From the IMG/VR virus record IMGVR_UViG_646564533_000009: a stretch of 50,095 nucleotides of DNA. One strand, written 5' to 3'. A model generated the notes under the pieces. That model was not told the origin of the DNA, did not search any database, and saw only the letters and a program-made list of their open reading frames with translations. This stretch comes from a virus (taxonomy: Duplodnaviria > Heunggongvirae > Uroviricota > Caudoviricetes). The position numbers and the translations under genes are program-made. This document shows, piece after piece, positions 27,581-30,110 of the stretch; the stretch's first letter is position 1; every line of letters begins with the position of its first letter.

Positions 27581-28890
27581 AAGAGGTGGGCTGGACCAGC
27601 CTGTTTCAGGCGGTGGCTGAGCCCTTTGCCGGCGCCTGGCAGCAGGGTGTGAAAGCCGATCCGGAAAGTGTCCTCTCCTTTCATGCGGTGTTTTCTTGCA
27701 TTTCGCTGATATCCCAGGATATCGCCAAAATGCGGCTGCGCCTGATGCAGACGGATACACAGGGGATCCGCTGTGAAAAACGGCAGGGGGATATTGCCCG
27801 TCTCTGTCGTCGTCCCAATGCACAGCAGAATCGTATCCAGTTTTTTGAACTGTGGCTGAACGCCAAACTGCGTCACGGCAATACGGTGGTGCTGAAAATC
27901 CGTAACTCCCGGGGGCAGATCAAAGAACTGCGTATTCTGGACTGGAGCCGGGTTGAACCTCTGGTGGCGGATGACGGCGAGGTGTTCTATCGCATCACGC
28001 CGGACCGGAACTGCGGGATCACGGAGGCGGTGACGGTGCCTGCCCGGGAAGTGATCCACGACCGGTTTAACTGTTTTTTTCATCCGCTTGTGGGGCTGCC
28101 GCCGGTGTATGCCGCCGGGCTGGCGGCCACGCAGGGGCATCATATTCAGGAAAATTCGACGTCTTTTTTCAGAAATGGCGGCAGGCCGTCCGGGGTGATT
28201 GAGATCCCCGGCAGTATTACGGAAGAAAATGCGAAAAAACTGAAGAGCAACTGGGACAGCGGGTATACCGGCGAAAATGCGGGGAAAACGGCCATTTTGA
28301 GCAACGGGGCAAAATACAACCCCACGACGTTTTCACCGGTGGATGCGCAGACGGTGGAACAACTGAAGATGACCGCTGAAATTGTCTGTTCGGTGTTCCG
28401 TGTCCCGGCCTACAAGATTGGCGTTGGCCAGCCACCTTCCAGTGACAACGTGGAGGCGCTGGAGCAGCAGTATTATTCCCAGTGCCTGCAGACGCTGATT
28501 GAGTCCATTGAACTGTTACTGGATGAGGCGCTGGAAACGGGGGAAAACGAGAGTACGGAGTTTGACGTCACCACGCTGCTGAGAATGGACAGCGAACGGC
28601 GCATGAAAACGCTGGGTGAGTCGGTGAAAAATACGCTTCTCACGCCCAATGAGGCCCGTAAACGTGAGAACCTGCCGCCCCTTGCGGGAGGTGATGCACT
28701 GTATCTTCAGCAGCAGAACTACAGTCTGGAGGCGCTGTCCCGTCGTGATGCCCGTGAAGATCCGTTTGCGTCGTCCGGGAAAAGAGTTTCAGCCCAACTG
28801 CCTGACGGCGCATCTGACGGTAATAAGGCAATCAGTGAAACAGAGCATGGTGCGGTGAAAGCGATGTTGAGGGGGATACTGCGAAAATGA
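27526..28890 (+). CDS. Portal protein
   Basis: 454-aa ORF in the head module; portal-like by size and position. Confidence 0.85.
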   Translation: MWNLLRRTRKNQKSGRDVKEVGWTSLFQAVAEPFAGAWQQGVKADPESVLSFHAVFSCISLISQDIAKMRLRLMQTDTQGIRCEKRQGDIARLCRRPNAQQNRIQFFELWLNAKLRHGNTVVLKIRNSRGQIKELRILDWSRVEPLVADDGEVFYRITPDRNCGITEAVTVPAREVIHDRFNCFFHPLVGLPPVYAAGLAATQGHHIQENSTSFFRNGGRPSGVIEIPGSITEENAKKLKSNWDSGYTGENAGKTAILSNGAKYNPTTFSPVDAQTVEQLKMTAEIVCSVFRVPAYKIGVGQPPSSDNVEALEQQYYSQCLQTLIESIELLLDEALETGENESTEFDVTTLLRMDSERRMKTLGESVKNTLLTPNEARKRENLPPLAGGDALYLQQQNYSLEALSRRDAREDPFASSGKRVSAQLPDGASDGNKAISETEHGAVKAMLRGILRK

Positions 28891-30110
28891 CGGAACGGGA
28901 ACTGTCCATTATTCGTGCACTGGGAGAAGAATTCGCCACGGTGCTGGCGGATTTACAGCGCACATTTGAGGAGAAGATGGCCGCGCAGGCACAAGCGTTT
29001 GAAGAGAAACTGGCTTCCCTGTCGGCGGTATTACAGAAGCATGTGACGGTGGATGAGGTACATCCGGTTCTGCAGGCGATGGTGGATGACGCTGTGGGGA
29101 CCATTCCGGTACCGCGTGATGGTCGTGATTATGATCCGGATGTACTGCAGCAGGCGGTGAATGATGCGGTTGCGAATATTCCGGTACCGGCGGACGGCAA
29201 AAGTATCACCCCCGATGATGTGCGTCCGATGCTTGAGCAGATGGTGAAAGAGGCCGTAAGCCATATCCCTGCTCCGCGTGATGGTCGTGATTACGATCCG
29301 GAAGTACTGAAGCAGGTGGTGAATGATGCTGTCGGGAGCATTCCTGTACCGGCAGACGGCAAAAGTCTCACCCCGGATGATGTGCGTCCGATGCTTGAGC
29401 AGATGGTGAAAGAGGCGGTAAGCCATATTCCTGTTCCGCGTGATGGTCGTGACTACGATCCGGAAGTACTGAAGCAGGCGGTGAATGATGCGGTCGCGAA
29501 AATACCGGTGCCGGCAGACGGCAAAAGTATCACCCCCGATGATGTGCGTCCGATGCTTGAGCAGATGGTGAAAGAGGCTGTAAGCCATATCCCTGCTCCG
29601 CGTGATGGTCGTGATTACGATCCGGATGTTCTGCGGAAGGCGGTTCTGGAGGCGGTGAATGCCCTGCCGGCTCCGCAGGACGGGCGTGATGCCACGGCTC
29701 TGGAAGTGCTCCCCGCTATTGACGATCAAAAATCCTTTCCCCGGGGCACGTATGCCACACACCTGGGAGGATTCTGGCGGGCGTATGAAAAAACGCACGG
29801 GATGCGGGGATGGGAATGCCTGGTTGACGGGGTGGCGGATATTGACGTCAGTATGACGGGGGAGCGGTTGTTCTCTGTGGTGATCCGGCACAGCAGTGGC
29901 CAGCGTACGGAAAAAACATTTTCCCTGCCGGTGATGCTCTACCGCGGTGTGTTCAGAGCCGGTGAAACCTACCACCCCGGTGATACGGTGACGTGGGGGG
30001 GCTCGCTGTGGCACTGCAACAGTATGACCGGTGATAAACCCGGAGAAGCTCATTCATCAGGCTGGACCCTGGCTGCAAAACGTGGACGGGATGCAGGAGG
30101 CGGAAAATGA
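28887..30110 (+). CDS. Structural protein with 3.5 tandem 54-aa repeats and C-terminal carbohydrate-binding-like module
   Basis: Repeats of IPVPRDGRDYDP…VNDAV…IPVPADGKSITPDDVRPMLEQMVKEAVSH; C-terminus …GETYHPGDTVTWGGSLWHC…PGEAHSSGW resembles a CBM5/12-type motif. Confidence 0.65.
   Translation: MTERELSIIRALGEEFATVLADLQRTFEEKMAAQAQAFEEKLASLSAVLQKHVTVDEVHPVLQAMVDDAVGTIPVPRDGRDYDPDVLQQAVNDAVANIPVPADGKSITPDDVRPMLEQMVKEAVSHIPAPRDGRDYDPEVLKQVVNDAVGSIPVPADGKSLTPDDVRPMLEQMVKEAVSHIPVPRDGRDYDPEVLKQAVNDAVAKIPVPADGKSITPDDVRPMLEQMVKEAVSHIPAPRDGRDYDPDVLRKAVLEAVNALPAPQDGRDATALEVLPAIDDQKSFPRGTYATHLGGFWRAYEKTHGMRGWECLVDGVADIDVSMTGERLFSVVIRHSSGQRTEKTFSLPVMLYRGVFRAGETYHPGDTVTWGGSLWHCNSMTGDKPGEAHSSGWTLAAKRGRDAGGGK
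29103..29650 (+). repeat. Coding tandem repeat, 162-bp unit, about 3.4 copies
   Basis: Direct near-identical repeats visible in the DNA and protein; in-frame within the 28887-30110 ORF. Confidence 0.85.

Follow-up and report, generated by a model that had tools for sequence, protein, structure and literature searches.

The fibritin of phage T4 (gp wac), the protein of the neck whiskers, consists of an anchor at the N-terminus, a helical shaft that loops divide into segments, and a small C-terminal folding domain; its gene is located beside the neck genes. In phages SPP1 and Mu the gene that immediately follows the portal gene codes for a low-copy portal-associated product, the minor head proteins gp7 and gpF, respectively. 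The portal protein of P22 carries a C-terminal barrel; portal C-termini sit in the crown, inside the capsid. Other phage fibres carry collagen-like segments or CBM-like tips and are proteins of the tail module.

We analysed a window of 50,095 nucleotides of Caudoviricetes DNA, for which the best explanation is an EHEC lambdoid prophage that is Pankowvirus/Marienburgvirus-like. The open reading frame under study lies between the portal gene and the adaptor gene, and the features of the region are the following:

27526..28890, + strand: HK97-type portal gene, 454 aa (PF04860, E 2.9e-80)
28871..28875, + strand: G5 run (aGGGGGat), Shine-Dalgarno-like, 11 nt upstream of the fibre-gene ATG (sequence)
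28887..30110, + strand: gene of the fibre-like accessory protein, 407 aa, 44 kDa, pI ~5.0 (sequence)
28893..29042, + strand: N-terminal helix of ~50 residues (aa 3-52), presumed oligomerisation/anchoring element (AlphaFold2 full-length model, pLDDT 86-96)
29103..29669, + strand: shaft, seven half-units of 27 aa, which make up 3.5 copies of a repeat of 162 bp/54 aa (sequence)
29670..30107, + strand: conserved C-terminal all-beta domain (aa 262-407; structure model, pLDDT 93)
29937..30086, + strand: CBM5/12-like sub-domain (about aa 351-400) with the core motif GDTVTWGGSLWHC...DKPG...W (profile, HMM alignment and fold comparisons)
30107..30433, + strand: gene of the gp6-like head-tail adaptor Ad1 (PF05135 and phrog_40)

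The resemblance to T4 fibritin is an analogy of working principle only. The window protein is likewise modelled as an N-terminal helix followed by a segmented helical shaft and a C-terminal domain; however, no sequence or fold match to fibritin was found, the shaft units have Pro/Asp-Gly linkers, and the C-terminal domain is a beta domain of ~140 residues and not a foldon. Like the genes of SPP1 gp7 and Mu gpF, the fibre gene directly follows the portal gene, but its product has no PF04233 match in Pfam and its architecture is wholly different. The end domain is similar in fold to collagen-like and CBM-tipped phage fibres (Foldseek against BFVD, 'collagen triple helix repeat' and 'ChiC_BD', E 1e-6 to 1e-9) and to the tail fibre of Agrobacterium phage 7-7-1 (PDB 9rkv, E 1.2e-3), and relatives of the window protein carry Gly-X-Y runs as such fibres do. 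In contrast to these tail proteins, the family described here is fixed between portal and adaptor, and its E. coli member has helical repeats in place of collagen.

The gene between portal and adaptor

The ORF at 28887-30110 is a real, intact and independent gene with its own conserved methionine and Shine-Dalgarno sequence. The portal stop codon and the ATG of the fibre gene overlap (ATGA), and the ATG of Ad1, which has a GGAGG upstream, overlaps the stop codon of the fibre gene in the same manner (ATGA). The portal protein of the window ends with ...KAMLRGILRK*, which matches the ...KAMLRGLLTK* of other Enterobacteriaceae, i.e., the ancestral form; in those bacteria this C-terminus is followed by AAATGAATG and MNEREL, the same design as in the window. 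The C-terminal end of the portal protein is a flexible linker and then a short conserved helix (...AVKAMLRGILRK). In the Pfam search PF04860 matched the upstream ORF, with the E-value listed above, but not the 407-aa protein. The window prophage copy is defective because an IS element interrupts its capsid gene, and in such a prophage the fibre gene may not be in use.

Clustered at 50% identity, the homologues of the protein form 5587 clusters at E<=1e-3 and 627 at E<=1e-30. A locus search which used an alignment of 8 sequences found the order portal, fibre gene, Ad1 in 53 of 55 informative GTDB species-representative genomes (Enterobacterales, Pseudomonas, Burkholderiales, Rhizobiales, Acidobacteria and others, from several bacterial phyla), and the same order is present in metagenomic contigs and in Pseudomonas phage PAJU2. 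The earlier note regarded a protein of this kind as unexpected at this position, which does not agree with so conserved a place in the genomes and in the metagenomic relatives. Among the best 150 homologues listed, 148 had no detected portal part, as judged by a junction check for P0098, by scanning eight of the longest against Pfam and by reading about 60 sequences; an N-terminal segment equivalent to the helix of the window protein was found in the stand-alone homologues whose sequences were read. The window protein fits this family by its N-terminal helix, its PxPxDG/helix repeats, its C-terminal beta domain and its position between portal and Ad1. The members have in common the N-terminal helix of ~50 residues, a shaft whose units of ~27 residues vary in number and each comprise an extended P-x-P-x-D-G-K-D linker and a short amphipathic helix, a conserved beta domain of ~140 residues which ends with the CBM5/12-like module, and stop and start codons that overlap at the gene borders. 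In some members collagen Gly-X-Y runs replace the shaft units or come after them.

On balance we consider it more likely than not that the gene codes for a fibre-like accessory protein of the virion, which would be part of the HK97-type head/neck module and form a fibre in low copy number at the portal vertex. The family is very large and uncharacterised. Translation would be coupled from portal through fibre to adaptor via the ATGA overlaps, and because of this coupling the fibre would be made in roughly portal-like amounts, about a dozen chains or a few trimers. Trimers are implied because some members of the family carry true collagen Gly-X-Y runs: the relative L131 has a long collagen-like Gly-X-Y shaft, and at least 15 of 149 representatives have such runs in their C-terminal tails; they are absent from the window protein. 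The N-terminal helix would serve to anchor the fibre at the portal vertex, from where it may either stand out from the neck, as a whisker does, or lie inside the capsid, tethered on the portal crown.

Helical shaft and C-terminal domain

The tandem 54-aa repeats which the earlier note reported in this ORF are indeed present, and the 3.5 copies of 162 bp are 89-93% identical at the DNA level. Each half-unit consists of a 12-residue P-x-P-x-D-G-x-D/S linker and a helix of 13-17 residues; AlphaFold2 models the shaft of the 407-aa protein at low confidence (pLDDT 45-78). The idea that the repeat number can change also holds among related E. coli prophages, where it ranges from ~0.3 to ~6.3 units and the proteins measure 245, ~299, 353, 407, 461, 515 and 569 aa, in steps of 54 aa; near-identical head modules differ ~2.3-fold in shaft length. 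Unequal recombination between the 162-bp repeats would alter the shaft in this way. A function as head-length ruler for prolate capsids had been raised because the O157 Sakai heads measure 44x95 nm (PMC2669165). It was ruled out, since phi330 with a 4.3-copy version has an isometric head of ~55 nm (PMC12502783), and the range from 0.3 to 6.3 copies between near-identical head modules contradicts it as well.

A PDB sequence search with the N-terminal and repeat part returned only designed helical repeat proteins (E>0.2). The sub-threshold Pfam/NCBIfam matches to TetR_C_35, DUF4244, V-ATPase E and Mre11 lie on the helical repeats and were dismissed, and PF28083, which is listed on many homologues, is 'QatB (faint)' and represents noise from helical repeats.

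The C-terminal domain is located at the very C-terminus in nearly all of 145 representatives, with a mean column identity of 50% in an alignment of 46 diverse sequences. As the earlier note had suspected, the C-terminus resembles CBM5/12: the predicted structure of the last ~50 residues shows the compact three-stranded beta fold of this module, although the PF02839 score of 18.7 bits is below the Pfam gathering threshold of 26.2 bits (the homologues P0242 and P0156 reach 22.6 and 21.9 bits). A further beta module without a clear match precedes this sub-domain. We compared it with chitin-binding modules of Serratia ChiB, Streptomyces ChiC (ChBD, 2d49), Bacillus ChiA1 (ChBD, 1ed7) and the CBM12 pair of the Vibrio chitin deacetylase. 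In contrast to these, the fibre family scores 18.7-22.6 against 26.2 bits, and the module belongs to a phage fibre with the extra beta module upstream and not to an enzyme. In addition, the W-x-P of the deacetylase is replaced by Asp-Lys-Pro: in the HMM alignment to its CBM12, 'QDWAP' faces the invariant D383-K384-P385 of the family, and the tryptophan of W-x-P becomes aspartate. The remaining conserved tryptophans (W370, W375, W393) may be core residues. The C-terminal domain is too conserved across hosts for a host-specific receptor binder. It would work as a folding or registration nucleus, and it possibly binds a conserved glycan, e.g., peptidoglycan-like GlcNAc polymers, or another part of the virion.

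Portal fusion and alternative explanations

A sixth G in the G-run fuses the portal and fibre ORFs, and the fused E. coli form thus differs by one G. Among 81 loci of the IMG/VR E. coli sample, 42 have G5 (split) and 39 have G6 (fused). Comparison with other Enterobacteriaceae has shown that the split form is ancestral and that the E. coli fusion is derived, through an inserted +1 G. Fusions in frame with the portal C-terminus arose three times independently: E. coli G6, P0242 (in two metagenomes) and L131. Phage 2851 has one portal-fibre ORF of 859 aa, and phi330 carries the G6 junction. The fused forms keep the internal Shine-Dalgarno sequence and ATG, and free fibre protein could still be made from them by internal initiation. 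Phi330 is plaque-forming, and phages of both the split and the fused form yield virions or plaques (PMC7946995, PMC12502783); the split-form example Lys8385Vzw is taken as annotated, with two CDSs, without inspection of the junction, and phi330, whose record has several split structural genes, was left out as a clean reference. Programmed frameshifting as a means of joining portal and fibre was set aside, as the portal frame has no canonical X XXY YYZ slippery heptamer for a -1 shift and the only slip candidate found was the single-tRNA site A AAA UGA at the portal stop codon.

Database labels such as 'portal protein' and 'frameshifted', which the earlier note does not mention, arose because the derived +1 G fuses both ORFs in many E. 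coli prophages. RefSeq names the identical junction 'phage portal protein, frameshifted', an intact fused form of 861 aa exists (WP_000267294.1), and PHROG 2271 models the fusion, so that the PHROG 'portal' matches come from fused members. One could conclude from these entries, as in the PGAP/RefSeq reading, that the ORF is a pseudogene and represents the 3' half of an 861-aa portal gene broken by a frameshift. This is hardly credible, as other Enterobacteriaceae regularly show the split, with the same portal C-terminus and the ATGA overlap, 53 of the 55 genomes overall are split, the ORF has no portal-fold homology, and its own start signals and the stand-alone homologues described above speak for a separate gene.

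The portal fusions also bear on the place of the protein in the particle. They join the portal C-terminus, which lies inside the capsid, and therefore an external location of the fibre fits badly with them. The protein could instead be an internal extension of the portal, tethered to the crown by its N-terminal helix and forming an axial bundle, a detachable counterpart to the portal barrel of P22 or to an inner core, for DNA spooling or ejection and not for adhesion. In its fused forms (E. coli, P0242 and L131) the protein does resemble the P22 barrel, being a long portal C-terminal extension which starts with a long helix; in favour of this explanation are also the plaque-forming G6 phage phi330 and the single ORF of phage 2851, the ATGA coupling to the portal gene, the portal's linker and short helix, which could dock a partner, and our own estimate that twelve 44-kDa chains would fill roughly 1% of the volume of a 55-nm capsid. 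However, the fibre was ancestrally encoded by a separate gene, the family has repeats, collagen-like runs and a beta end domain, and it shares no homology with gp1 of P22. External phage fibres typically have collagen-like segments and end domains of the CBM5/12 kind, and the variation of the shaft between near-identical head modules does not fit an internal dimension. Neighbouring overlapping genes also fuse easily by chance, and the free protein could still arise from the start signals kept in fused forms. We regard the internal extension as rather unlikely, although it is the most probable of the alternatives.

The earlier note proposed a capsid decoration or adhesin-like protein, which as a decoration would cover the shell in many copies. 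In its favour, the gene is located where the block of head genes ends, a CBM-like domain is present and variable repeats are typical of surface proteins. This explanation has little probability. The ATGA coupling to two 12-copy proteins, portal and adaptor, points to a low-copy component of the portal vertex, and portal fusions would be incompatible with binding all over the shell. No decoration family or fold (gpD, Hoc/Ig-like, Dec, Soc) was found in Pfam, PHROGs, NCBIfam or PDB sequence and fold searches, and in the GenBank record of PAJU2 ORF003, ORF010 and ORF015 are named 'structural protein' while the homologue, ORF007, is 'hypothetical'. A non-virion assembly factor, scaffold-like or a chaperone, which would assist at the portal when the procapsid nucleates and would later be lost or degraded, appears quite improbable too. 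It would agree with the position beside the portal gene and the coupling to it, with the acidic helical N-terminal part (pI 4.5) and with the lack of evidence that places the protein in virions; literature searches for virion proteomics of PAJU2, AH14a, Ab31 and phi330 gave nothing on it. However, the scaffold function in the window is already provided by a protease-scaffold-capsid fusion protein, and the modular fibre-like build, which ends in a conserved beta domain, does not resemble known scaffolds. The low-copy fibre of the portal vertex is the explanation that we prefer.

Implications for the family and its annotation

At 50% identity the family comprises over 5,000 clusters, in Proteobacteria and Acidobacteria, and has no solved structure, curated model or known role; it is a candidate new component of the portal vertex or neck. 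An improbable but broader idea is that the G5/G6 run, which is also the Shine-Dalgarno sequence of the fibre gene, is a reversible switch between free fibre (G5) and a portal with a covalent C-terminal fibre (G6), the latter possibly accompanied by free fibre that internal initiation supplies. Phage populations would in that case change back and forth between two architectures of the portal vertex, and the family would represent a component of this vertex that has gone unrecognised and is nearly universal in a large clade of HK97-type siphophages.

The split form is the native arrangement. Hundreds of E. coli/Shigella records, PHROG 2271/1289 and PGAP mislabel the gene as portal or as a frameshifted pseudogene, and calls of prophage integrity may be affected by these labels; the portal was scored 'defective' for several O157 Sakai prophages, for a reason which is not stated there (PMC2669165). 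The 162-bp repeats give rise to length variants among Stx-converting phages and could be used as a typing marker. If the fibre is external, these repeat-length variants could affect adsorption.

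Prophage setting and repeats of the fibre gene

The window, from enterohaemorrhagic E. coli, is a lambdoid prophage; the region shares 95-97% identity with Stx-converting and PPompW/PPyecE phages, and a 401-bp junction segment (28700-29100) shows 100% identity with strain 2013C-4465. The HK97-like head module runs from TerS, TerL, a protease-scaffold-capsid fusion, a 73-aa ORF, the portal gene and the gene of the fibre-like protein (fibre gene) to Ad1 (a gp6-like head-tail adaptor), head closure, gp10-like, tail completion, major tail, chaperones and tape measure.

Features of the head module in the window
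24116-24221 and 25477-27314: split capsid gene (prohead protease-scaffold-major capsid fusion), IS-interrupted
about 24222-25476: IS3-family element, 1255 bp; orfA 24256-24603, orfB frame to 25469
27526..28890: portal ORF (PF04860, E 2.9e-80)
28887..30110, + strand: fibre gene, 407 aa, after the portal ORF and before the Ad1 gene
30107..30433: gp6-like adaptor (Ad1) gene (PF05135, phrog_40)

The capsid fusion gene, which encodes 645 aa in intact relatives, is broken past about codon 35 by the IS3-family insertion, and therefore this prophage copy cannot build its own capsid. The 73-aa ORF (27359-27580) is conserved between the capsid and portal genes, overlaps the portal start and is labelled 'hypothetical protein' in all related records. 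The major tail protein (31645-32361) has a C-terminal Ig-like domain, with weak I-set, Ig_2 and Ig_3 matches on the same-length homologue of locus L094.

The earlier note had described a repeat-bearing ORF after the portal gene, and our data confirm it: Tandem Repeats Finder reports a period of 162 bp at 29112-29644 (3.3 copies, 90% matches, zero indels), a second repeat search gives three copies spaced by 162 bp, and in protein register aa 73-234 make up three complete 54-aa units and aa 235-261 half of a further one. The complete units agree at 144-150 of their 162 bases, and each consists of two 27-aa half-units, IPxPRDGRDYDP plus a helix and IPVPADGKSxTPDD plus a helix. The predicted change in copy number is also seen among related E. 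coli prophages, whose fibre proteins of 245, ~299, 353, 407, 461, 515 and 569 aa differ in steps of 54 aa and carry about 0.3 to 6.3 units. Since the units are 162 bp long and ~90% identical, unequal recombination is a likelier source of this variation than polymerase slippage.

Split and fused forms of the portal-fibre junction

The database label 'portal protein' stems from a fusion of the portal and fibre ORFs. PHROG 2271, a 'portal' profile of 859 residues, aligns with the portal ORF over positions 1-451 and with the fibre ORF over 455-859, and 116 of the 120 database proteins closest to the fibre protein are portal fusions reading ...AMFRGDTEK-MTEREL. RefSeq lists WP_000267294.1 (861 aa) as an intact 'phage portal protein' and labels the split arrangement of the window 'frameshifted'. 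The forms are separated by a single G: aGGGGGat in the window (G5, 28871-28875) versus GGGGGG in fused copies (G6). In the G5 form the portal ends ...KAMLRGILRK-TGA, its stop overlaps the fibre ATG (ATGA), and the G-run is the Shine-Dalgarno (SD)-like element of the fibre gene. Of 81 IMG/VR loci, 42 have G5 and 39 have G6, and 4 of 35 flanking haplotypes (each 400 bp) carry both states, which indicates that the run is subject to recurrent change, recombination or sequencing error. The phi330 record (L154, PV189401, 3501-4879 and neighbours) splits several structural genes (fibre, gp10-like and major tail); this is a Sanger genome assembled by hand, and the splits are probably errors of sequencing, so that its annotations need care.

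An exhaustive HMMER search gave 5587 representative clusters at E<=1e-3 and 627 at E<=1e-30. No portal part was detected in 148 of the best 150 listed homologues (85-862 aa, a few being fragments), as judged from the junction of the representative P0098, from Pfam scans of eight among the longest proteins and from about 60 sequences that were read; in these homologues the conserved domain lies at the extreme C-terminus. On homologue contigs the fibre gene stands directly behind an HK97-type portal gene, with stop and start overlapping, and ahead of the Ad1 gene, as it does in Pseudomonas phage PAJU2 (ORF006/007/008). Sampling of GTDB, one genome per species, recovered 59 loci from Enterobacterales, Pseudomonas, Burkholderiales, Marinobacter, Neisseriaceae, Rhizobiales, Caulobacteraceae, Acetobacteraceae and Acidobacteria; 55 were long enough to judge, and 53 of these have a separate upstream portal ORF. 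The position, previously called unexpected, is thus the usual one for a gene conserved in this head module. The junction ...KAMLRGLLTK(stop) / AAATGAATG / MNEREL, found in Kosakonia, Enterobacter, Kluyvera, Buttiauxella, Atlantibacter, Citrobacter, Pantoea and others, has the design of the window, including a purine-rich AGAGGA/AGGGGG that lies some 11 nt before the ATG. Portal-free homologues, separate portals and these outgroup junctions together show the window's split form to be the ancestral state and the E. coli fusion to be a derived +1 insertion.

Two further portal-fibre fusions are independent: P0242 (1237 aa, in two metagenomes, with a long and different linker) and L131, from an Acidobacteria MAG. 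The shaft of the 1237-aa fusion (metagenome contigs L092/L093, 6001-9714) has about 25 'LPxPEPLPDI + helix' units without the Asp-Gly motif, which shows that the shaft's linkers themselves differ in chemistry within the family.

Predicted architecture of the fibre protein

The AlphaFold2 model of the full-length protein, built on a 60-sequence alignment, begins with a single long helix (aa 3-52, pLDDT above 86), continues with nine helices of 13-17 residues, joined by extended P-x-P-x-D-G linkers of 12 residues (pLDDT 45-78; low values are expected when a fibre is modelled as a monomer), and ends in a beta domain modelled with confidence (aa 289-397); the last 152 residues modelled alone reach pLDDT 93. 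The carbohydrate-binding-like C-terminus proposed earlier is supported in its fold by this model, by Foldseek against the PDB, with a match to the paired CBM12 modules that chitin deacetylases carry in tandem, and by a profile search of PDB sequences (CBM5/12 modules at E ~1e-3); the Pfam CBM5/12 match is below threshold (E 0.0018, 18.7 vs 26.2 bits, residues 357-379). The tandem match suggests that the C-domain consists of two small beta modules. In BFVD, phage proteins labelled 'collagen triple helix repeat' or 'ChiC_BD' and tail-fibre proteins end in domains that resemble it. The predicted fold of the C-domain is CBM-like, but sugar binding cannot be assumed: in the alignment from the profile search, the W-x-P Trp of the deacetylase CBM12 is placed on the family's invariant D383-K384-P385.

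True Gly-X-Y collagen runs replace or extend the shaft in relatives (in L131 the shaft itself; in at least 15 of 149 representatives a tail behind the C-domain), which implies that the fibre protein would be trimeric. Conservation is highest in the C-domain (mean column identity 50% over 46 diverse sequences), which favours a role in folding and registration, or a conserved ligand, over host-specific receptor recognition.

Proposed placement at the portal vertex

At their C-termini (window 28740-28887), portals of fibre-carrying phages share a conserved crown segment, QQQNYSLEAL..RDA.EDPF, followed by a ~30-residue variable low-complexity linker and a short conserved amphipathic helix, KAMLRGLLTK(stop); the arrangement looks like a tethered docking peptide.

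The portal-fibre (28871-28890) and fibre-Ad1 (30096-30110) junctions are both ATGA overlaps behind SD-like purine runs and have the 11-mer GAAAATGACGG in common, which suggests that three neck-vertex genes are translationally coupled in a chain; their proteins are probably made in similar, low amounts. This probable low, coupled expression, the constant gene order and the repeated fusions to the portal point to a location of the fibre protein at the portal vertex, and the shell decoration considered in the earlier note is judged improbable. There, the N-terminal helix would hold a small number of trimeric fibres, each with a shaft whose length is adjustable and with the conserved beta domain at its end.

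Such a fibre could stand outside the virion as a whisker, which fits the collagen-like and CBM-like features, or form an internal bundle tethered to the portal crown. The latter fits the fusions to the portal, whose C-termini lie inside the capsid, and two phages of the fused form: phi330, which has a G6 junction and plaques (PMC12502783), and 2851, with its single 859-aa portal-fibre ORF. Lys8385Vzw, split by annotation, forms virions (PMC7946995), and BP-4795, also annotated as split, was isolated as a phage. No proteomic or structural data on the fibre protein were found in the literature. The fibre gene is ordinary as a conserved member of the head module, and its product, best read as a phage fibre protein, belongs to a large, uncharacterised family whose members are systematically mislabelled.
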